DNA of 64,000 nucleotides from Acidimicrobiia bacterium (lineage in GTDB: Bacteria > Actinomycetota > Acidimicrobiia > Spongiisociales > ZC4RG35). The stretch is from contig OZ244034.1 of the NCBI GenBank assembly GCA_965215185.1, positions 864,001-928,000 on the forward strand, given 5' to 3'. A program made the position numbers and the translations under genes. The number at the start of each line of letters is the position of its first letter. Within the stretch, counting starts at the first letter, position 1. Positions 9,958 through 62,247 of the stretch are shown here, one piece after another. The notes below the pieces were generated by a model. The model made no database searches. It was given only the letters and a program-made list of their open reading frames with translations, and was not told where the DNA came from.

Positions 9958-9982
9958 AACTGATACTCAGCAAATATCCCTC
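9958..9982. repeat. Palindromic junction site A
   Basis: AACTGATACTC-AGC-AAATATCCCTC. Confidence 0.8.
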
Positions 9983-10133
9983 ATGATGGGTTGGCAGTGC
10001 CCTTGCCCGAGATTACTGGTGCTTAGATTGGCTGGTGCCTGAGGTGGCGGGAGGAGGTAGGTAGCGGGGGCGACAGTGGTTTTGGGCAGGCGTCAGCAGA
10101 GCGCATTGGCCAGCCCACTATCTCGTCGGTCGT

Positions 10134-11657
10134 TTATCGACAGAAATGCGACCATACTGCGTTGGCTCTGACCGGTCCGATGCTGTACACAGCGTCGAGG
10201 TCGGCGATGCTGTAGAACGGTTGGTTGGCCCATAACCTTGGGGCCAGGGTCGCTCCGATGCCGTATACCGCGTCAAAGTCGGCGATGGACTTGTCGGCAA
10301 TGACGCAGGCGGCCTCTGTTGTGTCGGTTGTAGGGTTCTCCGACCCATTAGCGAACCCAACTCCTTGGTCGCCGCATCCGGCCAAGGTGGCGGACAAGGC
10401 GTCCGCCTCGGCCTGATCTACGGTAAGTTCCCATGCCGACTTGACTGCCACAGTAGTCCGAGCTAATAGGCACCGACCTGCTGCTGTTACCCGATAGCCG
10501 CCGCCACAGGCAGCCGACGAAGCAATGCGAGAATCTGACCACTCGGCTATGTCATCCCCGCTCTTTGACTGGTTGACACAGGCCCGTGACGCAACATGGT
10601 TAGCCGGGTCTCGGCTGAACCGCCGTCTCTGATCAGATGACCATGCCCACCCGCCCGATTCGTGAGCTTCGTGTAACGCCACAACATGATCTACATGGCA
10701 GACGTCAATAGTGGTTGCCGTGTAAGGGTCCGCCGAACCCACTGCCTCCCGGCAGAGACTGCTCCCGTGCGGACCCCAGTCGTCGCGGTCGTAACCTGTG
10801 CTCTGTTCAACGGCGATTTGAAGCTGCACCGACACAGGAGCCGACCCTGTTGTCTCCTCGGTGGCAGCGTTCCCCTCTGTTGATGGTATTGCGGGGGGAC
10901 AAATGTCAGGGGCTGATGCTCGGCATATAAACAGCACCGTTTCCTCCCGAACCGTGGGAGTACCGAAACCGAAAACAGAAGGATCTGTGCCCATCCCACC
11001 GGCAACGCCCTGGTCATGTGCCCACCCAATCGGCAGGTTGGCCCATTGCGACCGGCTAATGGGCACATCGGTGTAAATGTCGCTTCCCCTCGACCCTCCT
11101 GCAGGGGACCCTTTCGCTCGGAAAAGGAAAGTGACCGTTTGTTCCCGGTTTAGCGTCTGGGAACCGCCAAACGCCACCTGGCTGACCCCACTCGTAATCT
11201 GATTGCTGACCGCCCACCCAATCGCGTGATTCGCCCAATGATCAACCGGCACATCCGAAAACCTGTCACTCCCCTTCATACCACTGCGGCACTGGGTGGG
11301 AGCAAAAGCCCTACACAAGAAAGTAACCATCTCATACCGGGTCAAGGTTTGTCCCATACCAAACCGGTTATCGCCCACACCAACGGTTATCCCTTCCTCC
11401 ACAGCCCAAGCAATGGCATGCTCGGCTATATGCCCCTCGGGGACATCCTCAAAACCGGTAAGGGCCCTCCCCAAACCAACCTGGGAAGAAAAAAGCAGGA
11501 CAGACACCACCAACCCCACCCCCACAGAACGAAATGTCCGAGACCTCACAACTGCCACAAGCACCCCATTATCGTCTCCCAGCCGATCACTTCCCAAACG
11601 GGGACCGTCACCTGTGCTAGCCTCGCCGGGCCCCGGCAAACTTTCAATCCCGAGCAA
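10134..11657 (-). CDS. SLH-domain surface protein with a DUF1524-like HNH nuclease and a C-terminal ComEA-like helix-hairpin-helix
   Basis: Hydrophobic signal segment; three SLH repeats (FEDVPEGH, FSDVPVDHW, YTDVP); GYDRDDWG...HVDHVVAL.EA.ESG...N...VNQSKS; two HhH motifs (VYGIGATLA, VYSIGPVRA). Start codon uncertain. Confidence 0.75.
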   Translation of the reverse strand: MLGIESLPGPGEASTGDGPRLGSDRLGDDNGVLVAVVRSRTFRSVGVGLVVSVLLFSSQVGLGRALTGFEDVPEGHIAEHAIAWAVEEGITVGVGDNRFGMGQTLTRYEMVTFLCRAFAPTQCRSGMKGSDRFSDVPVDHWANHAIGWAVSNQITSGVSQVAFGGSQTLNREQTVTFLFRAKGSPAGGSRGSDIYTDVPISRSQWANLPIGWAHDQGVAGGMGTDPSVFGFGTPTVREETVLFICRASAPDICPPAIPSTEGNAATEETTGSAPVSVQLQIAVEQSTGYDRDDWGPHGSSLCREAVGSADPYTATTIDVCHVDHVVALHEAHESGGWAWSSDQRRRFSRDPANHVASRACVNQSKSGDDIAEWSDSRIASSAACGGGYRVTAAGRCLLARTTVAVKSAWELTVDQAEADALSATLAGCGDQGVGFANGSENPTTDTTEAACVIADKSIADFDAVYGIGATLAPRLWANQPFYSIADLDAVYSIGPVRANAVWSHFCR

Positions 11658-11698
11658 TATGCTTGCGAGATACAGCCTGACGATGTGAGGAAACGATT

Positions 11699-12460
11699 GT
11701 GGCAGGTGACCCTAACGATGACAATGACCAGATGGACAAGGGTATGTCCAAAGGAGAGTTACGGAGACAAAAGCGTCGGCAAGAGATCAAGCGGCTGCAG
11801 ACCCAGAAAGAGGAGGCTCAGGAGCAAAGAAAGCAGGCTCTAGACGAGGTCGACGAGGCAAGAGCCCGAATCGACCAGGCCCGCCAGCAGATCGAAGAAT
11901 GGGAGGCGGAGAAGAAACAGTTCCTTGAGCGCAGTGAACGCCAAAGGCGTCGGATCGAGGAGATTGGTAGCCGTATCGAGAAACTCCAAAAGCGGAGAGG
12001 GGCTTTGTGGTGGGCTGGCGCTGCTGCGATTGTAGTTGTAGTCGTAGCAGTCATTGCGGGGCTGCTACAGGGCGATGGTCCGAGCCTGCCTGATGTGACA
12101 CCACGTCAAACGAACACCACCACGAGCAGGGCGACCACTACAACGACCACGACAAGGGTGACCACGACAAGGCGGGTGCCACAGACCCCGATGGACGCAG
12201 CTGAGAGATGCTTTTCTGCCTGGGATGGCAACCATGACGACTTTGAGCGGCAAGTCCGTGAATTGCTGAACGACCCAGGCAGCATGGAAACGCACGGGAC
12301 CTATTTCAATAGCGACGAGGACATTTCTGACGGAACAATGACGATCCGGATGGACTATGGGGCACGCAACCAACTGGGCGGCATGGTCCGGACCGATGCT
12401 ATTGCCGAGATGAACGTACGCACTTGTGAAGTGACGGTCATCGACTACGGAGTCGGGTAA
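11699..12460 (+). CDS. Hypothetical membrane protein (coiled coil, TM helix, Thr-rich linker, extracellular domain)
   Basis: Charged helical N-terminus; TM WWAGAAAIVVVVVAVIAGLL; C-terminal CFSAWDGNH...DPGSMETH...YGARNQLGG. Confidence 0.7.
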   Translation: MAGDPNDDNDQMDKGMSKGELRRQKRRQEIKRLQTQKEEAQEQRKQALDEVDEARARIDQARQQIEEWEAEKKQFLERSERQRRRIEEIGSRIEKLQKRRGALWWAGAAAIVVVVVAVIAGLLQGDGPSLPDVTPRQTNTTTSRATTTTTTTRVTTTRRVPQTPMDAAERCFSAWDGNHDDFERQVRELLNDPGSMETHGTYFNSDEDISDGTMTIRMDYGARNQLGGMVRTDAIAEMNVRTCEVTVIDYGVG

Positions 12461-12502
12461 AACCAACACCCCAGCTAGATCAAAGTTATAGTCGCCGCTT
12501 GC

Positions 12503-12527
12503 GACTGATATTCAGCGAATATCAGTC
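12503..12527. repeat. Palindromic junction site B (perfect 11-3-11)
   Basis: GACTGATATTC-AGC-GAATATCAGTC. Confidence 0.85.
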
Positions 12528-12799
12528 ATGATTGGGTTTTAGGCTTCACCCGGAAGGTCGGGCAGCTTGGCGTTCTTTCGGGGTCAGCAAGCCACTGATC
12601 CAAATATCCCGACTCCACGAAAGTGGGGTACCATCAGGTCGCCCAGTGGACCCACGAACCTGATAGTGACTATCCAAAGATCACGTTGTCGGATCTTCCC
12701 AATCTGGGATCGTCCAGCTAGGTCGCAGGACAGGACTGGCGGCGAATATCCCATCCGACCCTGATCGTCTGCGGGAATGGCTAGCTAGGTGTCGGGCAA

Positions 12800-13578: not shown

Positions 13579-13587
13579 AGGCGCTGG

Positions 13588-16844: not shown

Positions 16845-17999
16845 TCACGTTTCCAGGTAGTGAGCCCACTTTTCCATGATCGGTCGTCGTGCTTCGAGGA
16901 GATCGCTTCTGGCATAGGCGCCTTCTACGCCTCCCACGATGTGCGCCAGTGCTGCCTCGGCTATCTCGCGAGGCACTCCCGAGTCTCTACACCAGTCACG
17001 GAAGGATGATCGCATCCCGTGTGGAACGGCTTCGATCCCGTTTTCGCGAACCAGTTTGGAGATCGTTGAGTTGGATAGTGGCTTTCCTGTGGGTGATGGG
17101 AATACCAGCCCCTTTGCGTCTGTGAGGTCGGCAGCATCGTTGATGATGTTCCGTGCCGGCCTGCTTAGAGGTACCCGATGCGGGCGACCGGTTTTGGTTC
17201 GTTCGCCGGGAATCTCCCATGTGTCGGTGGTGAGGTCGATCTCGTCCCATGTGGCGTTTCGGACTTCGCCGCTTCTGGTTGCTGTCAAGGTCAGGATTTT
17301 GAACGCGGCGATGGTCGCCCAATGGGCATTGGACGCTTCGACAGTTTTGATAGCCGCGCTGACGTGGCTGTGGTGCAGGGCTCGCATGTGGTTGCGTCGG
17401 GTGCTGTTTTTGCCTAGCCCGGCGAGAATTGCCGAGCTGGGATCCGACTCCAAGAAACCCTCTGCGATCGCCCATTTCATGATGGCGCCGATTCGCTGTT
17501 GGACTCTTCGGGCTGTTTCGGGTTTGCTGTGCCACATGGGCGACAGGCATTTCATGATGTCTTTGCTGGTGACCTCGTCGACCTGTTTGCGTCCGATGTG
17601 GGGGAACACATAGGTTTGCAGGCTTGATTCCCAGATTTTTCGGCTCCGGCTTCCCGGTCGCCATTTTCCGGAGTGCAGTTCGATCACTTTGGCGGCTGCT
17701 TGTTGGAAGGTCGGTGTTTGGCCTGATCGCGGGTTGTGGCCTTCCTCAACGGACTGGCGGTTCCTCAGGGCCCGTCTTCGGGCTTCGGCCAGTGTGACGG
17801 CGGGATAGCTGCCCAGGCCCAGATTGGTTTCCCGCCCGTTGAGGCGGAGTCGCTGACTCCAGGTCTTCGATAACCGACCCTGGATGTTGGTGGTTTTGAC
17901 CAGTAGACTCAGCCCATGGCCGCCTCTGCCGTCTCCGTATCGTCCTGGTTGCCGGACCGTCTTGACGAAGGAGGCCGACAGAATGTTCGGTCTTTTCAC
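16845..17999 (-). CDS. P4-like tyrosine integrase (arm-binding domain plus catalytic domain), intact
   Basis: PGRYGDG..GL.L..LGLGSYPAVTLAEAR; catalytic residues TATRSGE, TKT, HGMRSSFR, LAH, GAY. Confidence 0.92.
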   Translation of the reverse strand: MKRPNILSASFVKTVRQPGRYGDGRGGHGLSLLVKTTNIQGRLSKTWSQRLRLNGRETNLGLGSYPAVTLAEARRRALRNRQSVEEGHNPRSGQTPTFQQAAAKVIELHSGKWRPGSRSRKIWESSLQTYVFPHIGRKQVDEVTSKDIMKCLSPMWHSKPETARRVQQRIGAIMKWAIAEGFLESDPSSAILAGLGKNSTRRNHMRALHHSHVSAAIKTVEASNAHWATIAAFKILTLTATRSGEVRNATWDEIDLTTDTWEIPGERTKTGRPHRVPLSRPARNIINDAADLTDAKGLVFPSPTGKPLSNSTISKLVRENGIEAVPHGMRSSFRDWCRDSGVPREIAEAALAHIVGGVEGAYARSDLLEARRPIMEKWAHYLET

Positions 18000-18441: not shown

Positions 18442-18474
18442 TCACTGAATTCCCCTATTAACTAGGGTAAATAC

Positions 18475-18523
18475 ACGGGCTCATAATCCGTTGGTTGCAG
18501 GTTCGAGTCCTGCCGGGCCCACC
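18475..18523 (+). tRNA. 3' half of a CAU-anticodon tRNA (Ile2/Met); att-site remnant, not a full tRNA
   Basis: Anticodon arm ACGGG-CTCATAA-TCCGT, T-arm GCAGG-TTCGAGT-CCTGC, acceptor 3' strand CGGGCCC-ACC. No D-arm or 5' acceptor strand upstream. Confidence 0.8.
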
Positions 18524-18711
18524 CTCATTCACCCTGTTTCATCCTGTTTCCTGATGTTTCACGAAGTGCCACAAGTGCAGGTAGATCATCGTTTCCGCCA
18601 TCGTGTGAGCACTAGGTGACCAGCCCTGCTCGCGTTCCTCGACGTTTCAAGTTGGTTCGGGTTGTTTCGTTTTGTGTGGGACGGCCTGTGGAACGGGATT
18701 GGAGGTGAGGG

Positions 18712-19420
18712 ATGCCGAAACTGACTGCTGCGAGCGTGCGGCACGCCAAGCCAGGATCACACAGTGATGGAAATGGGCTGATTCTGAGGGTCTTTCTAAC
18801 CGGAGGCAAACGGTGGGTGTGAGAGAGGAACCGTACAGGGAAGAAGACGGGACTTTGGCTTTGGCTCTTACCCGACGGTCTCGCTCAAAGAGGCCAGAAC
18901 GAAGGCGTTGGAACATCTCAGGATTGCTCGGTTGGGAGGGATCCCTCCGTTCCCCGGTCTCAGGTTCCGACTCTCCAGCAGGCTGCGGAGAAGGTCTTTC
19001 AACTTCACCGGGCCAAATGGAAGCCAGGAGGCCGATCCGAGGAGCAATGGAGGTCGTCCCTCGCCAACTATGTGTTCCCACGAGTCGGCAACAAACCGGT
19101 CAACAACGTCACCACCCAAGATGTTATGGCCTGCCTGGCTCCTATTTGGTATTCCCGATCCACAACGGCCCGGCGGACCCTCCAGCGGATCTCGGCCATT
19201 ATGCGTTGGAGCATCGCTCAGGGTTACAGGGCGGACAACCCGGCGGACGACCGAATCACAGCCGGTCTGGGTAAGAACACCAAGCGGCCCCAGCACCTCA
19301 AGTCCGTACACCACAGCCGAGTGGCTGCAGCCATTGCCAAGATTCGAGAGTCCACGGCCCATCCGACGATTCGCCTTGCAACCGAATTTGGCATCCTGAC
19401 GGCTACAAGGTCAGGGGAGG
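18712..19420 (+). pseudogene. P4-like integrase pseudogene (stop and frameshifts; truncated by IS1182)
   Basis: MPKLTAASVRHAKPGSHSDGNGLILRV...; ...ILTATRSGEA ends at the CTAG of the IS end. Confidence 0.85.
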
Positions 19421-19620
19421 CTAGGAGGCTGCTGAGTAATGGGGTTGGTGGGTGGGGGTGTGGTTTGGTGGTTTAGGGGTTTTGGGGTGGTGGGTTGAAT
19501 TGTTGTGGGTGGTTGGTGGTTTGGGTGGTGGGTTAGGTGAGGTGGATGGCCCAGCCGGTGGGGGTGTGGTGGAGGCCGAGGTTGATAAGTCGGCGTAGGT
19601 TGATAGCGGCAGCGCGGGTT
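19421..19620 (-). mobile_element. IS1182 right-end remnant
   Basis: CTAGGAGGCTGCTGAGTAAT is the reverse complement of the 1522-1541 end (1 mismatch); encodes TRAAAINLRRLINLGLHHTPTGWAIHLT*. Confidence 0.88.
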
Positions 19621-23484: not shown

Positions 23485-23516
23485 CGTCGGGGCCGCCTAT
23501 AAGTGGTTGAGTGGGA

Positions 23517-48469: not shown

Positions 48470-48516
48470 CCCTGCTGCTATGGCTATTATTGCTCCAAAT
48501 CAGAAATGGGTGAGTG

Positions 48517-51622: not shown

Positions 51623-51632
51623 GGGCTCCTCC
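50999..51632 (+). repeat. SLH anchor module, copy 2
   Basis: Near-identical to 9201-9834. Confidence 0.9.
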
Positions 51633-51812
51633 GACAGTACTTCCCCAAAGGCACCGACCTCAGCAGACACTCCAGAGGCGACCTGGACGCTGTCGCCGCA
51701 GCACTCAACAGTCGACCCCGCAAAACCCTCGGCTGGAAGACCCCCGCCGAAACCCTCAACGAACACCTACACTCCCTAAAACAAGACACTGTTGCGACGA
51801 CCCCTTGAATCC
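51623..51812 (+). mobile_element. IS30-family 3' remnant
   Basis: [14 protein letters not shown]...[16 protein letters not shown]; end GTTGCGACGACCCCTTGAATCC. Confidence 0.85.
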
Positions 51813-52110
51813 ACCTTGGGCGCCGTGGTCGGAGTGGTGGACCAGTCCCGACTGGGGTCGGGGCCGACGACGCCATCTTGCCATCTCGAACGCGTCGCAG
51901 ACTATCTGTGCTCGGATATGGTTGGCTATCGACCATCCGATCACTTCTCGGTTCCAAGCGTCCATGACCACCGCCAAATACACTATGCCCCCTCGGGTGG
52001 GGTGCTGGGTGATGTCCGCCAGCCACAGCCTGTCAGGTTCGGTGGGCGAGAACTGTCGGTCGACCAGATCAGCTGATACTTCTCCGACGCGTCTGTGGCG
52101 CCGATAGGTG
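51813..52110 (-). pseudogene. IS3-family integrase-core fragment
   Basis: DLVDRQF..PDRLWLADIT..YLAVVMDAW.R.VIGWS...HHSDHG. Confidence 0.8.
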
Positions 52111-52505
52111 GTCTTTCGGGACATTATGCGCCTATATGGGACACTAAACCCGCGGACGTCATCTCCACCGATCACTGGTTTTCCCTGTTCTCCTTCCTTA
52201 AGGTTCCTACGGGGTACGCTGGGCTTGGGTGACCGGCGACAACAAAACGGCCGAGGCCCCCCAGTCGTTGCCGCAGGCACCGATGCAGCCGTTGAACTCG
52301 ACGAACAGCCCATCCCAGCCGTCGGTGACATGCAGCATTCCGTCCCAGAAACTGTTGGCACCTGAAGGCACCGAAGTCCTCGAAGGCGTTGCACATGGCG
52401 CATCGGATGATCCGGCAACACCGGCCCCTGACCCGACGACAGGGCTAGCCGGGGAGAAGCGAACCACACGACCCATAGCTTCGAGTACGCCAACCACCCA
52501 CTATA

Positions 52506-52545
52506 TTGTGGGTGTAGACCGTGGTTTGTGGGTGTAGACGGTGGT
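52506..52545 (+). repeat. 20-bp direct repeat TTGTGGGTGTAGAC(C/G)GTGGT x2
   Basis: Read directly from the sequence. Confidence 0.7.
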
Positions 52546-52742
52546 TAGGGATATATTTCACACATCCGTCCCATATGTGCAATAACCTGAGGCTGCCGAG
52601 CCCTGTAGGTGAACGACCCGTTTCCGTCCGCCGACCTGTTGGTATTGTGCGGTCTGGTTTCGTCTGTTGGGAGGGGTGTTTGGTGGGGTGGGTTAGGTGA
52701 TGCTTTGGCCCGGGATTATCCTGGCTTCCCTGTGAGAATGGT

Positions 52743-55490
52743 ATGAGGTTGACCCGCTCTAGTGGGCGTTTGTGGGTTGTGGCTGCGCTGGTGCTGGCCG
52801 CCTCGTTGGTGGTTCCTGCTGTTTCTGTTGTAGCTCAAGGCGGGTTCTCGGATCTTGATGAGGCGGGTTCTCATCGGGCTGGGGTTGAGGGGCTAGCGGA
52901 GATGGGAGTGCTGGAGGGCACTGACTGTGCTCCGGGGGAGTTCTGCCCCGGCGATGCTTTGCAGCGTTGGGTGATGGCGGTGTGGCTGGTCCGGGTCCTG
53001 GACGGTGCCGATCCTGGTTCATCCGGTACGCGTTTCGCCGATGTTGACTCGGATGAGTGGTGGGCGCCTTTTGTGGAACGTCTCGCGGTGCTGGGAGTCA
53101 CAGGGGGTTGCGCCACCGGCCCGGCTCGGTATTGCCCTGACGATTCGGTCACTCGCGCTCAGATGGCCACTTTCCTCACTCGAGCTTTCGGTCTCGAAGC
53201 TGCGCCGCCGTTCGGGTTTGTCGACGTTGAGGGCAACACACACGCCGGGAGTATCGATGCGTTGGCGCGGGCGGGGGTCACAGCAGGTTGCGCTACCGGC
53301 CCGGCTCGGTATTGCCCTGACGATTCGGTGACCCGCGCTCAGATGGCCACTTTCCTCACCCGAGCGATAAACAGAGCCGCTCTTTCGGTCGGACTCGAAT
53401 CCCCAACGGGGCGGACTGTGGCTGGTTCCTTTCAGGTGGGGGTCTCCTTCCGCCGGCCGGTGACCGGCTTCGGTCTGGATGATGTGAGGGTGGTCAACGG
53501 TCGAGCCACCAGCCTGGCGGGTTCTGGATCCGACTATGAGGTGACAATCGTCCCAGCGGCTGGGGGAACGGTGGTTGTACGGATACCCCGAGGCGCAGTT
53601 CGTGATACCGCTGGGAGTCCGAGCCAGGCGTCTGGGCTGTTGGTGAGGACTTTCGGGTCTGATGGCCATCGGGATGGTCCTGGGTTTGATGTCTGGGACC
53701 GGGACGTGGTGGTGTCAGCGTATCTGGCGGAGTTCGAACGGGAGCAACCAGACCCAGGTTTCACAGGCAACGTCGCCGAATGCGATGCGGGCACCACCAG
53801 CCAGGCCTTCCGGGACAGTGTGGTGCAGCGGGTCAACTGGTACCGGCAGATGGCAGGCCTCGACACCGTCACCGAGGATCCCTCCCGGTCCGCCGCGGCA
53901 CAGCGGAAGGCTCTGATCATGTCCGCCGCAGGAAAGCTGTCACACCACCCGCCACCCGATTGGGTTTGCTACACCCAGGATGTCCCCGGAAGGGGCGGTG
54001 AGAATCTTGGTCTCGGTTCCGCCGGGGTGTTCGCCGTCGACAGGTACATGCAAGACACAGGCGCCAGCAATCTGGCGGTCGGGCACCGCCGGCAGATCCT
54101 GTCCCCGTTCGTGGAGGAGATCGGCACCGGCAACATCTACCCCGAGGCCCGCCGTTACCGGACGACCAACGCTATGCACTTCGGGTACGACTACTCCACC
54201 GTTGCCACGGTTCGAGAGCAGCGCGGTTTCGTGGCATGGCCCCCAGCAGGCTACGTACCCGCCGAAACCGTGTGGGGACGATGGTCATTCCAACTACTCG
54301 TACCAGCCGACTTCGCTCAGGCCACAGTCACCGTCACAGACAACTACGGTCCCATACCGGTAGCAGTCATCAACCGGAGATCGGGGATCGTCTGGGCTGT
54401 GCACGGCGACTGGAACTCAGAGAAGCTTCCTGGGTTCCCTGACCGCGACTACTGCTACACGGTGACCATCAGCAACGTGAGAATCGACGATAGGGCTCAA
54501 ACTCCTTACCAGTACGCCACCTGCCTGGGTGACCTCGGTTCGGGAGCTGGCGGTGGTGCGCCCGTATTCCTGGCGTGGTCACCCGACAGCGCCCAAATCG
54601 TGTACCGGCACAACGGCGGGGTCTGGACCGTCAACGCGGACGGCACCAGGCAACGACTGATTCTCCTCTCCGGCTCGCCGAGGTGGTCACCCGACAGGAC
54701 CCAAATCGCGTACGGGGCCGACGGAATCTGGGTCATGAACGCGGACGGCACCAACCAACAACAACTCACCGAATCCGGCTCCTACCCGGTGTGGTCACCC
54801 GACAGCACCAAAATCGCCTACAGGGGCAGCGGAATGTGGACCGTCAACGCCGACGGCACCAACCAACAACAACTCACCGACCAAGGCGCCCCCTACCCGG
54901 TGTGGTCACCTGACGGAACCACAATTGCCTACGGCCGCTACCAAAAGGGAATCTGGACCGTCAACCCCGACGGGACGAGCGATCAACAACTCACCGAATC
55001 CGGCTACTCCCCGGTGTGGTCACCAGACGGCACCAGAATCGTTTACCAGACGTTCTACGAGATATGGACTATCAACACCGACGGCACCAACCAGCAATCA
55101 CTCGCCAAAGGAATAGACACTTGGAAAGTATCACCCGACCGGACCCGAATCGTTTTCTCCTCCTACTCCCCGTCGGACTCGAGTTCCTCCTCCCCATCGG
55201 ACTGGGGTATCTGGATCATGGATACCGACGGCACCAACCACAAACGACTGACCACTAACCGAGCATCCCACCTGACATGGTCACCCGACGGCACCCAAAT
55301 CGCCTACAGCCGCTTCCAAAGGGGAATCTGGACCATCAACACCGACAGCACCAACCACAAGCAACACACCACCCACGGAGGCAGACCGGTATGGTCACCC
55401 GACGGCACCCAAATCGCCTACGACAACGGGAACAACGGAATCTGGATCATGAATGCCGACGGCACCAACCAACATCAACTCACCAACTAA
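52743..55490 (+). CDS. Surface protein: signal peptide, three SLH, Ig-like, CAP/SCP domain, TolB-like (PD40) beta-propeller repeats
   Basis: YCPDDSVTRAQMATFL (duplicated); RVNWYRQMAGL..LSH..ENL..GHRRQIL; many WSPDG repeats. Confidence 0.82.
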   Translation: MRLTRSSGRLWVVAALVLAASLVVPAVSVVAQGGFSDLDEAGSHRAGVEGLAEMGVLEGTDCAPGEFCPGDALQRWVMAVWLVRVLDGADPGSSGTRFADVDSDEWWAPFVERLAVLGVTGGCATGPARYCPDDSVTRAQMATFLTRAFGLEAAPPFGFVDVEGNTHAGSIDALARAGVTAGCATGPARYCPDDSVTRAQMATFLTRAINRAALSVGLESPTGRTVAGSFQVGVSFRRPVTGFGLDDVRVVNGRATSLAGSGSDYEVTIVPAAGGTVVVRIPRGAVRDTAGSPSQASGLLVRTFGSDGHRDGPGFDVWDRDVVVSAYLAEFEREQPDPGFTGNVAECDAGTTSQAFRDSVVQRVNWYRQMAGLDTVTEDPSRSAAAQRKALIMSAAGKLSHHPPPDWVCYTQDVPGRGGENLGLGSAGVFAVDRYMQDTGASNLAVGHRRQILSPFVEEIGTGNIYPEARRYRTTNAMHFGYDYSTVATVREQRGFVAWPPAGYVPAETVWGRWSFQLLVPADFAQATVTVTDNYGPIPVAVINRRSGIVWAVHGDWNSEKLPGFPDRDYCYTVTISNVRIDDRAQTPYQYATCLGDLGSGAGGGAPVFLAWSPDSAQIVYRHNGGVWTVNADGTRQRLILLSGSPRWSPDRTQIAYGADGIWVMNADGTNQQQLTESGSYPVWSPDSTKIAYRGSGMWTVNADGTNQQQLTDQGAPYPVWSPDGTTIAYGRYQKGIWTVNPDGTSDQQLTESGYSPVWSPDGTRIVYQTFYEIWTINTDGTNQQSLAKGIDTWKVSPDRTRIVFSSYSPSDSSSSSPSDWGIWIMDTDGTNHKRLTTNRASHLTWSPDGTQIAYSRFQRGIWTINTDSTNHKQHTTHGGRPVWSPDGTQIAYDNGNNGIWIMNADGTNQHQLTN

Positions 55491-56506
55491 CTGACCGCAT
55501 CGCCTTTGTCAGCTACGGCGCCATCCATAATTGCTAAACCGGACGGCTCCGAACCTCAACGTCTTACCCCAGACAACTCCAACCAGGGAGATGACTTCCA
55601 AGGCGACTTCAATCTTGCCTGGCACGACTCCGATCCGAGTTGGTCCCCAGATGGAACCAGGATGCTGTTCAGCAGCACCCGCACAGGTGAAAGCGAAATA
55701 TTCGTCATCGACCCCGACGGCCAGAACGTTCAACAACTTACTATGAGGACAGGTGGCAGCAGTCCCAACTGGTCGCCCGACGGTACCCGGATCGTGTTCT
55801 CACGAATCGAGAACTACTTCACCAGCAAGTGGCGCTACAACTTCGATGAGACCGAAAACGTGTTCATCATCGACGCCGACGGAACTGACATCCAGAGGCC
55901 TACGTACTCTGGGGGCTCGTCCCCAGTTGGTCGCCTGACGGCAGGCTGATCGCTTTTCACAGGGTTGTTGACGGGAACTACCAAGTATTCGTGACGGCTC
56001 CCGACGGCTCCGACGGAAGGCAACTCACCACATCCGGCGGCTCGGACGCTAGCTGGTCGCCTGACGGCAGACAACTGGTCTTCAACGGTGAAGGCGAGAC
56101 ACTCGTGATGAACCGGGACGGCACGGATATCCGCCAATTGACTACCTTCGGTAGTTCCAACGCCCATTGGTCGCCCGACGGCCAGCGCATCATTCTCGAG
56201 AGCCAGCATCTCTACAAAGAGCCGATCACCGATATCTATGCGGAGTTCGAAAGCCACGGCATCCTTTCTATGCGAATCGACGGCAGCGAGGTCGTCCGTA
56301 TTAGTGACGGTGCTTACTCTCCGGTGTGGTCGCCGTCTGAGTGGCGCGTAAGAGATGCAACCAGGCAGACCCTCCGTCTGAAGCAGGCAACGATCGGTGA
56401 TGTTCACGCGTGCGGGTTGGAAACAGGCGGGACGGTGGTTTGTTGGGGAAACAATGACTTGGGACAAACTGGAGTTCCCCCGCTTTTCCGGACACGTATT
56501 CTGTGA
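55491..56506 (+). pseudogene. Frameshifted continuation: further PD40 repeats and an RCC1-like repeat
   Basis: ORFs 55506-55949 and 55991-56506 carry WSPDG repeats and HACGL..G.VVCWG.N..GQ. Confidence 0.65.
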
Positions 56507-56788
56507 TCGTGTGAGAGGCCGTGTGGTCTCTTTGGAAGGAGTTTTGAATGCCTGCTCCTTATCCGGAAGAGTTCCGGCGTAGAGCCGTGGATCTGGTACA
56601 TGAGAGCGGCGAATCCGTGTCTGCGGTGCCTCGTCGGCTGGGGTGATGGCGATCATCACAGTAGCACAGTGCCCAACATTGGTCCTAGACCTCCAAGAGT
56701 AAGTCAAGACCTCTCAGGGAAACGCAGACACCCCACCGCTCCAGTCCTCCTAGAGGTTCTAACGAACGTACCCGCCCTCAATTCGTGG

Positions 56789-57967
56789 CTAGGAACGGTT
56801 TGCCTTCAAGTTGTCTAGGTATCTGCTCCATTGTTCCATGAGTTCGCGGCGTCTTTCTAGGAGGTCCGTTCTGGCGTAGGCCTTTTCTACGGCGTTTCTG
56901 ATTTCGTGACCGAGGGCCCGTTCCGCCAATTCGCGGTCTGCGCCTGTTTCTCCGCACCAGTCCCGAAACGAGCTTCGCATCCCGTGAGGCACACAGCCGA
57001 CATTGTTCTCTTTGCAAAGTTTGCTCATGGTGGCATTGCTAAGCGTCCGTCCGGTTGGTGATGGGAAGATCAGGCCATTGCCGCCTGACCGCTGGTGTGC
57101 TGTGTCGAGAACCGCCAGAGCCCCGGTGCTTAGAGGCACCCGATGCTCTCGCCGTGTTTTGGTCCGCTCGGCTGGGATGGTCCAGATTGCTGTGGTGAGG
57201 TCGATCTCGTCCCATATGGCGTTTCTGACTTCACCACTTCTGGTGGCGGTAAGAGTCAGGAACTTGAACGCGGCGATTGTTGCCCAGTGAGCGTCGGTTG
57301 CTTCGACCGCCCGAACAGCTGCGCCGACCATTTTGTGGGGTAGGGCTTTCATGTGTAGGGGTCGTTGGGTGTTGGAACCCAACGCGGCGGTGATACGGTC
57401 GTCAGCGGGATTGTCGTCTCGGAACCCCTGGGCGATGGTCCACTTCATAACAGCAGAGATGCGCTGTTTCACCCGGTTAGCGGTCTCCGGTTTGTCGTGC
57501 CATTGTGGTGCGAGACAGGCCATGACATCCGCGGTGGTGATTAGGTCCACCCGCTTGTTCCCAAACCGGGGATAAGCATAGGTTTGGAGGGTTGACCGCC
57601 AGTGCTCTTCGGACCTTCCGCCCGGTTTCCACTTGGCAGCGTGAAGCCTGATCACTTTCTCGGTGGCCTGACGAAAGGTGGGCGCTTTGCGAGCACGGGG
57701 GTTGCGGCCTTCTTCGACGGCCTGCCTGTTTCGGAGAGCCCTCTGGCGGGCTTCCACCAGAGTTACTGCCGGGTAGCTTCCCAGCCCGAGGTTGGTTTCT
57801 TTTCCGTTGATCCGGATTCTCTGCACCCAGGCTTTGGAAAGCCGTCCTTCGATCTTGGTCGGTTTGACCATCAGGCTCAGACCATGACCTCCTCGACCGT
57901 CGCCATAGCGACCAGGTCGGCTTAGACTCTTGACGAAAGTGGCTGAAAGTGTTTTGGGTCGGTTCAT
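56789..57967 (-). CDS. P4-like tyrosine integrase, intact
   Basis: Start MNRPKTL by comparison with paralogues (ORF track extends to 58213); full R-K-HxxR-H-Y set (TATRSGE, TKT, HGMR, LGH, KAY). Confidence 0.92.
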   Translation of the reverse strand: MNRPKTLSATFVKSLSRPGRYGDGRGGHGLSLMVKPTKIEGRLSKAWVQRIRINGKETNLGLGSYPAVTLVEARQRALRNRQAVEEGRNPRARKAPTFRQATEKVIRLHAAKWKPGGRSEEHWRSTLQTYAYPRFGNKRVDLITTADVMACLAPQWHDKPETANRVKQRISAVMKWTIAQGFRDDNPADDRITAALGSNTQRPLHMKALPHKMVGAAVRAVEATDAHWATIAAFKFLTLTATRSGEVRNAIWDEIDLTTAIWTIPAERTKTRREHRVPLSTGALAVLDTAHQRSGGNGLIFPSPTGRTLSNATMSKLCKENNVGCVPHGMRSSFRDWCGETGADRELAERALGHEIRNAVEKAYARTDLLERRRELMEQWSRYLDNLKANRS

Positions 57968-58241
57968 CCTCTCGTTTCCCTTCCCGCTATGCTCGGAACT
58001 GACGGGTTCATTGTCGATGGATTTCCCTGTTAGCTGTCGGTACCGATACCACTGTTTATACCATTTAAGGGTAGTGCGCTTGGCTGACGCCTCCTGACAC
58101 CGCCTGACACGACCCATAACCACAAATAGGCCACTACCTGGGCAAACACAGGCCCAGGGAGACGAATTGAACACGATTGAAACCCAATCAGCGTAGACGT
58201 CACCTCCACTCAACTAGAACAGCCTCCTTTTTCCCCGCTAT

Positions 58242-58266
58242 GACGGATATTCTGGGAATATCTGGG
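58242..58266. repeat. Palindromic junction site F
   Basis: GACGGATATTC-TGG-GAATATCTGGG. Confidence 0.75.
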
Positions 58267-58334
58267 GTTGTGATCTGCTTGTTACTCGCGTTGGGTTTGG
58301 TTGGTTTCGGTCTGGATCAGTGGCTCTCGGCAGC

Positions 58335-58612
58335 TAGTAGCGACAGGTTCGCTGATGTGCCAGTGGATCATTGGGCGAATTACTCGGTTGGATGGGCGGT
58401 GAACCAGCGGATAACCAGTGGGGTGAGCGCCACCGAGTTCGGAGGTTCCCGGACGCTTACCCGCGAACAAATGATCACCTTCCTCTACCGCGCAAAGGAT
58501 CACTGACCGAGGGGTCTTTGGGAACTGACATCTATCAGGATGTGCCCGGTGACCGAAGCAAAAGGGGCTAACTTGCCGATAGGGTGGGCATTCGACCAAG
58601 GTGTCACTGGTG
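58335..58612 (+). pseudogene. SLH-repeat fragment paralogous to the 10134-11657 gene
   Basis: SDRFADVPVDHWAN..GWAV..ITSGVS..FGGS.TL.REQ..FL.RAK; degenerate NLPIGWA.DQGV. Confidence 0.75.
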
Positions 58613-58784
58613 AAGCTCGAACACGCCGACCTCATTAGGTGGGGGGCTGGGACCCAACGTTCCGTCCCTTGACACAGCATCATCTTGGGAGGCCGAATAC
58701 TCGCGAAAGTGCCACACATGCCATTTTCAACGTGCCACTGATCGAGCCGTCTGACCCAATCGGTGGTATGAGAAGGATTGCCCC

Positions 58785-58892
58785 TCAGTTGTCCAGGTAG
58801 CGGCTCCGATTGTCCATCAGTTGGCGGCGTATTTCTAACAGGTCTGTTCTGGTGGAGGCCTTCTTGACGGCGTTTCGGATTTCGTGGCCGAG
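58785..58892 (-). pseudogene. 3'-terminal integrase fragment
   Basis: LGHEIRNAVKKASTRTDLLEIRRQLMDNRSRYLDN*. Confidence 0.8.
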
Positions 58893-58894
58893 AA

Positions 58895-58929
58895 GGATGT
58901 TGTCAGTGGAACATCCACTGACAACATCC
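58895..58929. repeat. Perfect 16-3-16 inverted repeat at the island edge
   Basis: GGATGTTGTCAGTGGA-ACA-TCCACTGACAACATCC. Confidence 0.8.
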
Positions 58930-59180
58930 TATGGTTGACGACCATCCGGTCCAGGTTGATCGCTCTGCCTACTCCTCAGCGAGTGAGAACAGCCGTTCAG
59001 CTATTCGCCGGTGAGGGAATGGTCGACGTGTACTCTCTGGTAGAGGCGATGCATGAGCACCGTCAGTTCTCCTTTGTGACCGGTGATGACGGCAAGAACC
59101 GGCTGTCGCCCACCCCTCGGGCGATGCCATTGGCTGCCGCCTATCCTGTTGCCTCGTCGGTCATTTCCCGGTGGCCGTTG

Positions 59181-61667
59181 TCAGAGGCTGGGAGTCGGGT
59201 GGTGGCTGTCGCCGCCGAACTCTTGCCTCCGCCAGCGATGGTACAGCGCCCAGAGCACCAGCAGCGGGGGAAGCACCACGAACGTGGCGATCAGCGCCAA
59301 CAGGATGGTGACCGCGGTGAGCAGGCCGAGTTGCCTCATCGGATCGAGCGGCGCGAACAGGAGTGTCAACAGTCCGAGAGCCGTGGTGAGAGCGCTGGCC
59401 ACCAGCGCGCCGCCGGTGGTGGTCATCGCTCGTTGCATGGCGTCCCGGATCCGGCCCGACTGCTTTTCTTCTTCCAGGAACCGGTGGGTGAGGTGGATTG
59501 TGTAGTCGACCCCGATGCCGATCGTGAGGGCGGTGATCAAGGCCGTAACCATGTTGTAGGAGATCCTCATTGCCCACATGGCGCCCAGCACCCAGATCAG
59601 AACCACCGCGATGGGGATGATGGCGATCAGTCCTAGAGTGGGGCGAAACTGGGTGAGGCCGAAGTAGAGCACCAGGATGATCAAGGCGGCCAGAGTGGTG
59701 AGGCTTACGCTGAGCACCTGGCTGGCGGTCAACTCCTCGGTCACCAGGGCGATGAGCGAGTCGCCACCGGTGATTGTGATCTCCGAGGTATCCCCTCCCC
59801 ATAGCGTCTCGAGTTCGGCGATCAACTGCTGCGAAGCCTCGATACCCCCGACTGTGACCGGTACCTGGAGGATCGTGCGGTCGGAGCCTTGGGCGCGGAA
59901 GTCCACCACCTTGGAAAACCCCACCGGATCGGCGTTCTCGAGAAGCACCCAGGCGGCGCGCACCTCTTCGTCGGTTGCGAAGACGTTGAGGTTCAAGTCG
60001 GCGTATGCGGCGGCGAAGGCGGGGTCGTAGTTGTCGCCCGGCTGTTCGCTGTCGTTGATCCAGTCCGCTAGGAGCGTCCCCGCCGACGCCGACGGAGGAC
60101 CGGCGACACCCTGCGGTCTCCTGCGGGGATCGGCGAGAGTGGTGTAGAAATCGAACAGGTCACGAAGGGTCCGGACGGTGTCCAGATCGGCTTCGACGAG
60201 GATGGTCATCGTCGAGGCGCCACCGTTGAAATTTTGTTCCAAGAATTCGATGTTTTTCTCCGTTTGGGAGCCCTTCGGCACGAAGTCCTTGAGTGCGAAG
60301 GTGGTATTCAGACCGATGGCGGCTATGGCGGCCAGGATCGTGACCACGATGGCGCCGCCCAGGATCGGCAACGGGCGACGCACGATGGTGGTCGCCACTC
60401 GCGCCAGGGCTGCTCCGGCGCCGGGGATCGTGTCGGCGACCGGTCTCGCCGCCAATGGCTGTCCTCGGGCGGAGCGCCTTCGGTCCAGCACCAGCCGGGC
60501 GGCGGGCACGAAGGTGGTCATCACGATCCACCCCGACAGAACGCCGATACCGGCCACTATGCCAAAGTCGGCAACGGGCTCGAACTTGCTGGTCAGGTTG
60601 GTGATGAAACTGACCGCGGTCGTGCCCGCCGCCAGCAGGACCGGCACGCCCGAGAACCTGACCGCCTCACCGACGGCCACCCCCGGCGCATCCCCACCCG
60701 GATCGTCCTCCCGCGCCAGCGCCTCCCGGTAACGCCCGGTGATCTGCAACGCATAGTCCACGCACAGCCCGATCAGAAGCACCGGCACCAAGACGATCAT
60801 GATGTTTTCGGGATCAACCAGGTCGGCGCCTCCGGGCGACAGCCATGCCTGGGCGCCGAACGTCCAGAAGATGGTCAGGATAAGGCCGACGATGGCCAAC
60901 ACCACGTCCGAGCCGGTACGGTAGAAGGCGGCCAACAGCACCATGATCACCACCAGTGCGATGCCCATGAGCAGGAACAGGCTCGACCGGCGAGCCTCCC
61001 TTCCTTCCGTGTTGCTGTTTGCCTTGGTTATCACCGACACCGCCAGCGGGGCCAGTTCCGCGGATTCCGCGATCTCGTGGGCCCGCAGTTGCGCGGATTG
61101 CAGGCCCAGGGGATCGCCGGCGTCGTTGAGGATGATCAGAGAAAGCCCGGCGATCGGTGTCCCGTCGGCGTCGCGAGAGACGAAACGAGCCAGTCCGGCG
61201 TTCGCCTCGGCAAACTCGGGGACGCTGACCACTCGCCGAAGGACCACATCCAATTGGGCGTCGGAGACCGTGGCCAGGTCCAATCCACCGGCAGCCAGAA
61301 GGCGCTCGATAATAGGTACATACCCAAGCGCCGCTTCGTCCACCACGAATGTCTCGACCTGGGGGTCGCTTCTGATCGTGTTCTGCAGACCCCTGATCAG
61401 CCGCAGGGAATCGGCCGCCAGAACATCGCCCTTGGCCAGGATCTGGACAATCTCCACACCCGCGGCGGCCGGAAAACTCTCCCGGATGGCCGAGGAGGCC
61501 TCCGCCAGCTCACTCTCGGCGGGCAGGAAAGAAGCGGTGGCGTCGATAGGCGCCGCAGGGATGTCCTGCACCGCGAACCCGGCGAGCAGCACCGCGGTGA
61601 TAAGGCCCACGGCCGCCAGAACCAGTTTCGGGGTTCTCTGTATTCTGCGGGCCTGCCATCCGAACAT
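59181..61667 (-). CDS. MMPL/RND-family transporter
   Basis: Two halves with multiple TM helices, each with a GxxxDY motif (IGLCVDYA, IGIGVDYT). Confidence 0.9.
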   Translation of the reverse strand: MFGWQARRIQRTPKLVLAAVGLITAVLLAGFAVQDIPAAPIDATASFLPAESELAEASSAIRESFPAAAGVEIVQILAKGDVLAADSLRLIRGLQNTIRSDPQVETFVVDEAALGYVPIIERLLAAGGLDLATVSDAQLDVVLRRVVSVPEFAEANAGLARFVSRDADGTPIAGLSLIILNDAGDPLGLQSAQLRAHEIAESAELAPLAVSVITKANSNTEGREARRSSLFLLMGIALVVIMVLLAAFYRTGSDVVLAIVGLILTIFWTFGAQAWLSPGGADLVDPENIMIVLVPVLLIGLCVDYALQITGRYREALAREDDPGGDAPGVAVGEAVRFSGVPVLLAAGTTAVSFITNLTSKFEPVADFGIVAGIGVLSGWIVMTTFVPAARLVLDRRRSARGQPLAARPVADTIPGAGAALARVATTIVRRPLPILGGAIVVTILAAIAAIGLNTTFALKDFVPKGSQTEKNIEFLEQNFNGGASTMTILVEADLDTVRTLRDLFDFYTTLADPRRRPQGVAGPPSASAGTLLADWINDSEQPGDNYDPAFAAAYADLNLNVFATDEEVRAAWVLLENADPVGFSKVVDFRAQGSDRTILQVPVTVGGIEASQQLIAELETLWGGDTSEITITGGDSLIALVTEELTASQVLSVSLTTLAALIILVLYFGLTQFRPTLGLIAIIPIAVVLIWVLGAMWAMRISYNMVTALITALTIGIGVDYTIHLTHRFLEEEKQSGRIRDAMQRAMTTTGGALVASALTTALGLLTLLFAPLDPMRQLGLLTAVTILLALIATFVVLPPLLVLWALYHRWRRQEFGGDSHHPTPSL

Positions 61668-61730
61668 GGCAGACTTCAGTAGCCCTCGGGGGGCGCGCGG
61701 TCGAGGCCGGTCGGGGTGGGACTCGTTGCG

Positions 61731-61752
61731 CTCGACATACCTCTATGTTAAA
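61731..61752. promoter_or_regulatory. Possible operator upstream of the MMPL gene
   Basis: Imperfect dyad TCGACATA-CCTC-TATGTTAA, about 65-85 bp before the start codon. Confidence 0.3.
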
Positions 61753-61831
61753 TGAGAAACATGAGTCCGCCGGCATGAATCTCACTGATTTCTTGGACCG
61801 ACGGCACCACCCCACCCGCCAGTCGAAGCGG

Positions 61832-62218
61832 TCAGACTATCCGACCGCCGCCCGTCTCCACCAAGATGGTGACCGGCCCATCAATGACAAGGGACACTTC
61901 CATCATCACTCCGAAACGGCCCGTGGCCACCTCTATCCCTTCGCTCTGCAACGCAGCAACCACCTCGTCCACCAAACGCTCGGCCGGTTCGGGACGCGCC
62001 ACCCGGACGAAGGAAGCCCGGCGGCCCTTGCCAACATCCCCATACAGGGTGAACTGGCTCACCACCAACGCCGCTCCACCGGCGACGGCCAAGGCAAGGT
62101 TCATCTTCCGCTCTCGATCGGCGAATATCCGTAGCCCGGCCATCTTGGCTGCCGCCACCCGGGCATCGGTCACCGAATCCTCGTGGGTAACACCCACCAG
62201 AGCCAAAAGACCACCCCG
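61832..62218 (-). pseudogene. dtd: D-aminoacyl-tRNA deacylase lacking about 25 N-terminal residues
   Basis: GLLALVGV, LRIF, SQFTL, KGRR.SF, TGRFG.MM.V..DGPVT. An in-frame TAG lies just upstream, and the usual QRV N-terminus is absent. Confidence 0.85.
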
Positions 62219-62222
62219 CTAT

Positions 62223-62247
62223 GACTGATACTCAGCAAGTATCCGTC
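62223..62247. repeat. Palindromic junction site G
   Basis: GACTGATACTC-AGC-AAGTATCCGTC. Confidence 0.85.

Follow-up and report, generated by a model that had tools for sequence, protein, structure and literature searches.

The attC sites recombined in integrons are long, imperfectly palindromic sequences, folded as single strands so that the arms pair, and the attI site carries direct repeats bound by the recombinase. Cre/loxP, XerS/difSL and XerH/difH each combine one recombinase with a site of two like arms around an asymmetric centre. Where the recombinase is a single Xer, its gene adjoins the site. All have one site per replicon, which serves dimer resolution. Plasmid dif (pdif) sites, as defined in PMC6449649, are 28 bp long (11-6-11); one half belongs to XerC and the other to XerD, and their recombination is ascribed to the host XerC/D. 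In Mycoplasma agalactiae, the Xer-like recombinase Xer1 is reported to act at sites upstream of the Vpma surface-protein genes, which share a conserved 5' region (PMC2268961, PMC5634654).

The 64,000-nt stretch of Acidimicrobiia DNA analysed here (the window) carries seven copies of a palindrome, A to G, whose positions in an earlier sequence-only reading are recovered in full by a pattern scan: GACWGATAYTC-N3-RARTATC, with at most 2 mismatches, matches at 9958, 12503, 33303, 47547, 47979, 58242 and 62223 only (the 12 pattern matches counted include reverse-strand readings of palindromes), and 100 dinucleotide shuffles of the window give 0 matches, for a chance expectation of 0. The genome-wide scan proposed in that reading yields about 17 sites at up to 3 mismatches in the genome to which the window belongs (G000), against 0 for a reversed-pattern control, with nine sites in 861-926 kb, four in 240-252 kb and four single ones, and multiple sites are also present in G002, G007 and G011. 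Across these four genomes the sites lie at module borders, 7-17 per genome (17, 12, 7 and 11, respectively), and show at least 8 centre variants. One extra match in G000, at 1141655, is doubtful.

Each site, 25-29 bp long, consists of two arms, GACnGATAY and RTATCnGTC, around a 7-nt T-N5-A centre. This 9-7-9 layout and the tyrosine-recombinase-core architecture had been suggested before and are supported here, down to the five 7-nt overlaps originally listed, all of which are correct; the 11-3-11 consensus given alongside is the poorer description, being incompatible with the centre class TATCCCA/TGGGATA. Position statistics from 48 curated sites show G5, A6, T7, A8, T18, A19, T20 and C21 to be invariant or nearly so (45-48 of 48) and T10 and A16 to be present in 46-47, with positions 11-15 variable. 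Identical centres are found in only 3 of 13 consecutive site pairs, about chance level as counted by eye. Sites within an array mostly share one orientation, and one class, 3-6 kb downstream of the recombinase gene described below, has the opposite sense. Furthermore, the 11-mer CCAGSTAGAWC is conserved exactly 32 nt from many sites.

The flanks of these sites are reassorted, and flank alignment gives the same assignments as the earlier reading. Flank X (..CACTCAACTAGAACAGCCTCC..TTTTCCCCGCTAT) lies left of A (9958-9982, AACTGATAC TCAGCAA ATATCCCTC) and F (58242-58266, centre TCTGGGA), with its last 9 nt also present to the left of G (62223-62247, centre TCAGCAA); flank Y lies left of B (12503-12527, the perfect palindrome GACTGATAT TCAGCGA ATATCAGTC) and E (47979-48003, centre TCCATAA), flank P right of E and G, and flank Q (ATGAT(T)GGGTT) right of A and B. 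All four combinations of left and right flank reported earlier are present, and the combinations found include X|Q, Y|Q, X|F-right and Y|F-right. Homology does switch at the site: in self-BLAST, 9923-9978 matches 58207-58262, 12277-12513 matches 47741-47989 and 47979-48166 matches 62223-62410, these matches starting or stopping at sites. The 96 flanks sort into 12 families and many singletons. Family 3 (F-right) has Y, X and the reverse complement of P as partners across the site, family 2 (P) pairs with 4 different flanks, and 7 sites have an X flank. When the site was tested as the end of a known IS or MITE, such a terminal repeat was ruled out, as both flanks vary and there is no constant element body on one side.

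Beside A, flank X survives as a remnant (9923-9957, minus strand) that matches 58207-58241, carries, 32 nt from the site, an 11-mer of CCAGSTAGAWC type and has no integrase gene behind it; beside F (58207-58241, minus), it reads on the minus strand into GGAGG and then a TTG at 58213, heading the long open frame of a P4-like integrase. The Y remnant beside B (12458-12502, minus) corresponds to the initial ~45 nt of the sequence upstream of a recombinase gene that is itself absent, with CCAGCTAGATC at -32. Most of the interval between D (47547-47571, centre TCTGCGA) and E is taken up by a shortened version of the A-B module's tail (the 3' end of 11699-12460) plus a Y remnant (47741-47978, minus). 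Leader P precedes an SLH gene at 48431-51622 (48004-48188, plus) and a gene starting at 62435 (62248-62410, plus), a 2295-aa open frame with SLH domains beyond the window; a further copy, before a 1937-aa SLH gene (3926-4053, plus), lacks its first ~60 nt and a site and has IS-related ORFs upstream, and the G011 counterpart of that gene has a site. Site C (33303-33327, centre TCTGGGA) lies ~320 bp upstream of a P4-like integrase pseudogene, towards which a P-like leader (33227-33302, minus) reads away from the site. Short remnant flanks, Y at B, E and 861099 and X at A, indicate that deletions and IS activity also shaped the region.

The A-B module (9983-12502) encodes a protein with SLH and GmrSD_C domains (10134-11657, minus) and a coiled-coil/membrane protein (11699-12460, plus); the E-F module (48004-58241) holds two SLH proteins (48431-51622 and 52743-55490), a 290-aa ORF and a P4-like integrase; and the F-G module (58267-62222) contains a small SLH ORF and an MMPL transporter (59181-61667, minus). 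Unlike the cassettes of integrons, modules here span 0.4-25 kb and often contain several genes, in both orientations and with their own leaders. Their description as surface-protein cassettes holds in so far as SLH proteins are enriched; it does not cover the heterogeneity of the modules, which extend to the MMPL transporter, a defence island and integrase islands.

Comparison with a second species, G011, places module junctions at the sites. The MMPL module (58242-62233), with F at its left edge and G at its right, is 98.4% identical in G011 and has sites at both ends in both genomes, the outer flanks being unrelated; at both junctions the outer arm goes with the outer flank and the inner arm with the module, and at G the identity reaches site position 11 and then ends. 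G011 homology begins exactly at E, with 47978-51632 matching G011a 66114-69765 at 97.3%. Site-bounded modules are 96.6-98.4% identical between the two species, in different contexts, and the core flank beside tRNA-Pro/tRNA-Met is 78-86% identical; SLH cassettes (site, P leader, gene, tail) are ordered differently, and P-led SLH genes are co-oriented with their sites. The anticipated coincidence of breakpoints with sites is seen at module junctions and not at the giant-gene/DctP breakpoint (45140-45343), which lies at an IS-end-like repeat. Among the genomes compared, we found no locus with a module in one genome and a single empty site in another.

Flank Y is the upstream region of a gene for a ~308-aa Xer-like tyrosine recombinase, here named YR308, which is not visible from the window alone because the window holds only ~45-bp remnants of that region. 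The only intact copy in G000 lies outside the window, 617 kb away (245481-246392, minus), with its own site ~90 bp upstream, and broken copies are also present in this genome. A palindrome stands ~90 bp upstream in 9 of the 10 loci that have the 5' end of the gene, including a 68%-identical homologue from another lineage; the distance from site to open frame is 88-97 nt at most YR308 loci, and the palindrome also accompanies recombinase copies of 51-60% identity (G000 1470667, G002 314303). The upstream region forms one site flank (family 0) in 14 loci of 5 genomes, the DNA common to 10 YR308 loci is only site, leader and gene (~1.05 kb), and a second conserved block, with GAATATC, lies directly before the YR308 start. 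With the Pfam domains Phage_int_SAM_1 (PF02899) and Phage_integrase (PF00589), YR308 is, by its predicted SAM-like N-terminal and catalytic domains, a simple Xer-like tyrosine recombinase; in the alignment to XerD (1a0p), the putative catalytic motifs R, K, HxxR, H and Y are retained. Models of XerC, XerD and XerA score it at 85-96 bits, the best NCBIfam match being XerC (95.9 bits against a cut-off of 335, with XerD at 87.6 against 330), and a XerC/XerD orthologue was rejected on these scores, far below the equivalog cut-offs. The host Xer pair of G000 is found at 1397718-1398563 and 2940479-2941324.

In a phyletic comparison of 17 genomes of the genus and 24 outside it, YR308 occurs in G000, G002, G007 and G011 only, exactly the 4 of 17 genus genomes with multiple sites, a co-occurrence that rests on four related, non-independent genomes. 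G016 has one site with a YR308 fragment and G004 one exact match, and the 17-nt pattern is found in 0 of the 24 genomes outside the genus. By this distribution, YR308 is the putative enzyme tracking the site.

We consider it probable that the palindrome is the core recombination site of the lineage-specific, Xer-like YR308 and that the intervening segments are exchangeable modules; from the comparisons above we infer that the site is both bound and cut by YR308, with excision and integration as the way in which modules move. Two YR308 monomers would bind the inverted arms GACnGATAY and RTATCnGTC, and strands would be exchanged at both edges of the 7-nt T-N5-A centre, as in Cre/lox or Xer/dif, so that each arm would stay with its own flank and the DNA between sites would behave as modules. 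If two like-oriented sites recombined with each other, the module between them would be set free as a circle; this circle could then integrate at a further site, of the same genome or of another, and different centres (TCCATAA, TCTGGGA, TCAGCAA and others) may limit which sites pair. The window would then represent a YR308-less module array in a plastic tRNA-Met island that also gathers P4-like integrase islands and IS elements.

The same observations allow other readings. That the site is a regulatory operator only, through which YR308 or another dimeric DNA-binding protein controls the recombinase, the integrase and the P-led surface genes, with flank reassortment arising from homologous recombination, IS activity and deletions, seems to us rather unlikely. 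Such a role would fit the site ~90 nt upstream of YR308, ~30 nt from the GGAGG and TTG that head the integrase open frame, and directly upstream of the conserved leader of three SLH genes; the GAATATC block before the YR308 start would suit autoregulation, and the region is rich in IS elements and repeats. However, A (between the 3' ends of 4011-9824, plus, and 10134-11657, minus) and B occupy gaps between converging genes and not promoter positions, D-E holds only a gene fragment, simple hexamer reading by eye gives no consistent promoter, and YR308 is the only regulator candidate gene common to the loci. Homology breakpoints inside the 25-nt site, with arms going with flanks, also argue against an operator alone, although operator and recombination roles are compatible and not exclusive. 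It is unlikely, too, that the sites are genuine recombinase sites left as scars by a small selfish element (site plus YR308, ~1.05 kb) that decays after insertion between genes, the modules themselves being immobile. The conserved unit of just site, leader and gene, the gene-less Y remnants at B, E and 861099 and the broken YR308 copies in G000 would all agree with this, but the MMPL module is site-bounded in two species with different neighbours at 98.4% identity, the SLH cassettes stand in different order in G000 and G011, and at most sites the flanks are of X, X', W or P type and not Y remnants.

The enzymes originally proposed, the P4-like island integrases or, in a pdif-like manner, the host XerC/XerD, are very improbable as the ones that serve the sites. 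F and C do lie upstream of P4-like integrase genes, X flanks recur at 7 sites, and the 11-n-11 layout is like that of dif (PMC6449649); yet P4-like integrases occur in 10 of 17 genus genomes, including the palindrome-free G012 (15 matches) and G009 (9 matches), and in G000 a site is lacking at most of the integrase copies and fragments, which number 20 or more. The att of these integrases is here the tRNA-Met 3' end: the copy at 16845-17999 (minus), with no palindrome beside it, adjoins a partial tRNA (18456-18513, plus) that starts a 951-bp repeat of the tRNA-Met region (-5258 to -4308 in window coordinates), an att-type duplication of the integrase islands. The copy at 56789-58213 (minus; Arm-DNA-bind_3, Phage_int_M and Phage_integrase) is likewise not the enzyme tracking the site, and the palindrome as att of the P4-like islands was ruled out, given that no tRNA overlaps a site among those scanned and that the duplicated sequence is the tRNA-Met region. 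XerC-like and XerD-like genes are present in 17 of 17 genus genomes, against sites in 4-6, and neither part of the original enzyme assignment is upheld. A single-stranded hairpin, whether RNA stem-loop, terminator or folded DNA like integron attC, is scarcely credible. The 11-3-11 palindrome is perfect at several sites (B, C, 252226 and 2504639), but variable-arm pairing in the 48 curated sites is at chance or below (4/22 in 21, against ~17 expected; 9/17 in 13; 11/15 in 16), the TATCCCA class cuts the stem to 9 bp, no T-run was seen after the window sites, and Rfam gave no match at the sites. With pairing near expectation, the palindrome behaves as two protein half-sites, not as a hairpin. 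Integron attC was rejected on the 25-29-bp length, the chance-level arm pairing and the absence of hairpin covariation, and an IntI-type integrase on the score of YR308 (42.7 bits against a cut-off of 265, TIGR02249), bearing out the earlier view that the site is not an integron attC.

A site recombined by YR308 would share features with several described systems. Like those of the Acinetobacter plasmid dif modules (PMC6449649), the sites have short inverted arms and a variable centre and bound accessory modules that recur in different contexts. Measured against the pdif definition given there, they differ in having the same half-site, GACnGATAY, in both arms around a T-N5-A centre, which suggests a single recombinase, and they do not have the 28-bp XerC-half/XerD-half form. 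Unlike dif modules, they track an accessory recombinase gene instead of the universal Xer pair, and their arrays are chromosomal, at a tRNA island, in uncultured Acidimicrobiia.

At G000 246487-252226 and in the G011 array, a recombinase gene with its own site directly upstream faces a site-separated array, an arrangement that may parallel that of integrons; however, sites also occur downstream of YR308, and the window array has no recombinase gene. By analogy with the attI direct repeats, an extra recombinase-binding repeat may lie near the gene-proximal site. The single-recombinase site plan proposed here resembles Cre/loxP, XerS/difSL and XerH/difH; unlike them, each genome has 7-17 sites, at module borders, with at least 8 centre variants. 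Some sites also lie upstream of surface-protein (SLH) genes with a common 5' leader, P, as in Xer1/Vpma; the Vpma loci switch by inversion around a single promoter, whereas here each P-led SLH gene points the same way as its site and modules also carry non-surface genes.

We tentatively suggest that these arrays may constitute a third bacterial gene-cassette platform beside integrons and dif modules, in which a single dedicated Xer-like recombinase and lox-like sites with heterospecific centres would excise and insert chromosomal modules, with a preference for SLH envelope genes behind a common leader, and pass them from one species to another within an uncultured genus of Acidimicrobiia. If so, it would represent self-contained chromosomal module exchange in Actinomycetota, independent of integron integrases and the host Xer pair, and would explain the swapping of SLH genes, transporters and defence islands between species that are ~80% identical in the core here. 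As an orthogonal recombination tool set, too, a small recombinase whose 25-nt site comes with several natural centres could be of interest.

Contigs from 2 of 4 public runs (X3 and X5, from one study) join 58242 to 62255 on opposite strands, a junction of sites F and G, at low depth (4.8 and 5.7). A second strain or species in the sample may be the source of this junction, which reproduces the G011 arrangement.

The seven palindromes A to G (9958, 12503, 33303, 47547, 47979, 58242 and 62223) are present where the sequence-only reading had placed them, with flanks that match its description, and shuffled versions of the window give no match. Its claim that homology switches at these sites also held. 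In a self-comparison of 855-930 kb of the 3.12-Mb single-contig genome, G000 (60.7% G+C; the window is G000:C1:864001-928000), matches start or end at sites, with such an edge in the pairs 9923-9978 and 58207-58262, 12277-12513 and 47741-47989, and 47979-48166 and 62223-62410. A pattern scan of the whole genome at up to three mismatches finds about 17 sites, and the reversed-pattern control none. Outside the window these lie just to its left (genome positions 861099 and 863203), in a second cluster (239927, 246487, 250531 and 252226) and elsewhere (1470667, 1590566, 2495209 and 2504639), with a doubtful match at 1141655. Our curated set comprises 48 sites from five genomes: a relaxed pattern gave 77 matches, from which we kept the 47 that were also among other site listings or had GATA/TATC cores within a retrieved locus, and 861099 was added. 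The 30 matches discarded as noise all lie outside site-rich regions, all but one of them in G000.

Across the curated sites, positions G5, A6, T7, A8, T18, A19, T20 and C21 are invariant or nearly so and T10 and A16 almost invariant, with positions 11-15 freely variable. One class of sites, with the centre TATCCCA/TGGGATA, is incompatible with an 11-3-11 reading, and the site is best written as GACnGATAY / T-N5-A / RTATCnGTC, frequently extended outwards to AT...AT. Many sites have, on one side only, an 11-mer (CCAGSTAGAWC) that begins exactly 32 nt away, and it stands at this same spacing in both of the recurring flanks X and Y. A strand bias of G-T versus C-A arm mismatches was set aside, as it tracks the site classes and suggests descent rather than independent events.

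In four genomes of the genus (G000, at site 246487, G002, G007 and G011), flank Y runs on into an open frame encoding about 300-310 amino acids, whose start lies 88-97 nt away from the site. This frame, YR308, has its intact G000 copy of about 308 amino acids outside the window, at 245481-246392 on the minus strand. The protein carries Phage_int_SAM_1 and Phage_integrase domains, and its alignment with XerD (1a0p) covers residues 19-297 and retains the catalytic motifs. On the XerC, XerD and XerA models its scores of 85-96 bits lie far under the cut-offs, and the integron-integrase model gives 42.7 bits. YR308 is a simple Xer-like recombinase that lacks an equivalog, and the protein atlas offers nothing beyond generic 'tyrosine-type recombinase/integrase' clusters from Actinomycetota. 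The palindrome lies upstream in nine of the ten public-genome loci that include the 5' end of the gene, one of them in a different lineage, at a 68%-identical homologue whose site has arms altered outside the GATAC/GTATC core, and it is retained at copies of only 51-60% identity (beside G000 1470667 and G002 314303). Sites of the TATCCCA class 3-6 kb downstream of YR308 have the opposite orientation. Two identical further copies in G000 (3353-4211 and 2996699-2997557) sit inside a larger repeat, each in three broken frames, and neither has a palindrome at up to three mismatches. The alignment of YR308 upstream regions also contains a conserved 8-codon frame, MNHVEYLS-stop, between site and start (G000 about 246400-246430 and homologous loci), overlapping an arm-like GAATATC repeat.

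Long blocks are common to the window and to a stretch of G011, G011a, in differing order: window 58242-62233 corresponds to G011a 21650-25639 (98.4% identity), 47978-51632 to 66114-69765 (97.3%), 3926-9817 to 70224-76124 (98.0%), 33793-45140 to 54602-65904 (97.7%), 45343-46998 to 76187-77838 (97.5%) and 62241-66000 to 32026-35788 (96.6%). To the left of the tRNAs, the core flank reaches only 78-86% identity between these two genomes, and exchange of the modules is therefore much more recent than the divergence of the species. The expectation that breakpoints coincide with sites is borne out for the F-G segment, which carries an MMPL transporter gene and in both genomes has sites at its two ends and unrelated DNA outside them, but not for the junction of giant gene and DctP gene (45140-45343), which falls at the repeat GGTACCCCACTTTSGTGGAGTCGGG. 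At the left MMPL junction the outer arm differs (GACG versus GACT), and the two genomes share the entire sequence from GATATTCTGGG; at the right, the common sequence runs through GACTGATACTC, after which centre and outer arm go with the outside flank. This is the pattern expected if strand exchange were to fall within the central 7 nt. The GGTACCCCACTTTSGTGGAGTCGGG repeat, present in 15 copies in G000 (including window 12608-12632 on the minus and 45348-45372 on the plus strand), is followed by TTATTTGAATTGGTGG.. and resembles an IS-family terminus. Into one palindrome of G011 (G011:C10, around 1672000-1672030) an IS appears to have inserted: of the site, the last 7 nt alone remain before leader P, and the sequence upstream resembles an IS transposase gene at its 3' end.

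We grouped the 96 flanks of the 48 sites into families, counting only alignments that came within 12 nt of the site; the main families have 14 (YR308 leader), seven (X), five (P, the leader of surface-protein genes) and three flanks (F-right, the right flank of site F). F-right is partnered by Y, X and reversed P, flank P has four different partners, and only five pairs of sites have both flanks in common. Modules show the same centre at both ends in three of 13 consecutive pairs counted by eye, which is near chance.

Six public runs from three studies contain 77-83% of the words of 56500-63500. Four runs were compared by contigs only, and stretches without long contigs were given no weight. 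In two runs of one study, one contig each, at depths of 5.7 and 4.8, joins 58242 to 62255 with the two positions on opposite strands; the junction falls at sites F and G and reproduces the G011 arrangement (reversed P, site, F-right). These contigs show that both arrangements exist in nature, not that one lineage switches between them. About 60 nt to the left of site D, contigs of all four runs skip 120 nt (47365-47486; depths 4-16). A metagenome scan with the exact 9-7-9 pattern returned 71 stretches. About eight belong to relatives: their GC content is 58-60%, their centre is of the TATCCCA type, and the contig of one also encodes a YR308 of 83% identity. The other matches are unrelated perfect hairpins on contigs of different composition, and no circular module was found among the 71.

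The most economical reading, and in our judgement a reasonably probable one, is that YR308 is the cognate recombinase and the palindrome the core site on which it would act, as Cre does on lox or a single Xer on dif, with the segments between sites as exchangeable modules. Its main weakness is that we infer recombination at the sites from comparisons alone. Among 17 genus genomes, YR308 occurs (E <= 1e-30) in G000, G002, G007 and G011 only, which have 17, 12, 7 and 11 sites; G016 has a single site, accompanied by a fragment of YR308, in G004 the 17-nt pattern is matched exactly once, and eleven genus genomes and 24 outside the genus have none. As related genomes are not independent, this co-occurrence is suggestive rather than statistical. 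Use of the sites by P4-like integrases or the host Xer, the enzymes put forward by the sequence-only reading, is improbable, as neither tracks them: an XerD-like and an XerC-like gene are found in all 17 genomes, and P4-like integrases in ten, including the site-free G012 (15 matches) and G009 (9 matches). In G000 at least 20 integrase copies or fragments occur, most without a nearby site. The integrase islands carry a signature of their own, the tRNA-Met repeat. The tRNA-Pro and tRNA-Met genes at G000 858577-858789 (window -5423 to -5211) border the island, and a 951-bp repeat beginning inside tRNA-Met recurs at window 18476-19425 (97.9% identity), where Rfam finds a partial tRNA (18456-19425 region), which implies putative tandem P4-like integrase islands. 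In G011 and G002 the island occupies this tRNA locus as well.

A hairpin function, or an RNA element at the site, was rejected for missing arm covariation and for the lack of any Rfam family at the sites: the variable positions 4/22 are paired in 21 of the 48 sites, against about 17 expected, and 9/17 in 13, and the site thus behaves as two like half-sites for a protein rather than a selected hairpin. Less probably than under the recombinase reading, that protein would be a regulator and the site an operator only. A second conserved block, TGAACCATGnnGAATATCTnTCnTAA, immediately before the YR308 start codon repeats the gene-proximal site arm (it is also readable as an 8-codon upstream frame), and a check by eye of the site and its surroundings for -35/-10 promoter hexamers, on either strand, found nothing consistent; an operator role of the gene-proximal site would be compatible with YR308 acting as its recombinase. 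Also less probably, the sites could be scars of a small selfish YR308 unit: ten YR308 loci have no DNA in common but a stretch of about 1.05 kb that begins at the site and ends shortly after the stop codon. No YR308 gene lies within the window, and sites B, E and, just left of it, 861099 retain only about 45 nt of its leader. Dif modules and integrons work similarly to the proposed YR308 system, but by their defining tests it belongs to neither. The literature searched, including that on Acidimicrobiia tyrosine recombinases, yielded no description of the site or system, which does not show that none has been published.

SLH-domain frames occur at about 33 loci in G000, eight of them within the two site-rich regions, which make up about 2.7% of the genome. 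Leader P, which begins directly at the site, is common to three SLH genes, and at site C an integrase pseudogene is likewise preceded by a P-like leader. A structured RNA in the first 70 or so nt of P (RNAalifold, seven copies, -8.7 kcal/mol with a positive covariation term) was considered and dropped, with one of 15 pairs compensatory. In the second cluster the order is YR308, site, a 979-aa PD40-SLH protein, site, two ORFs and site. Among the cargo of other modules are the MMPL transporter, a binding protein of the DctP type, a BrxC/D-TerB defence block and a protein of 3412 aa. The defence-like block (19723-31564, minus strand) comprises a 1253-aa ORF, a BrxC/BrxD ATPase (23517-24926), a TerB_N/TerB/TerB_C protein (24923-27178) and a 1165-aa ORF. 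The SLH gene at 48431-51622 may be frameshifted near its 5' end, with leader P, by homology to the 4011 start, placing its start near 48146 and the long frame running from 48431 (region 48142-48513). Right after site F, a small plus-strand ORF (58270-58506) combines a hydrophobic N terminus with one SLH domain, and the 3412-aa ORF (34514-44752, plus strand) has internal repeats and is 97.7% identical to an ORF of G011.
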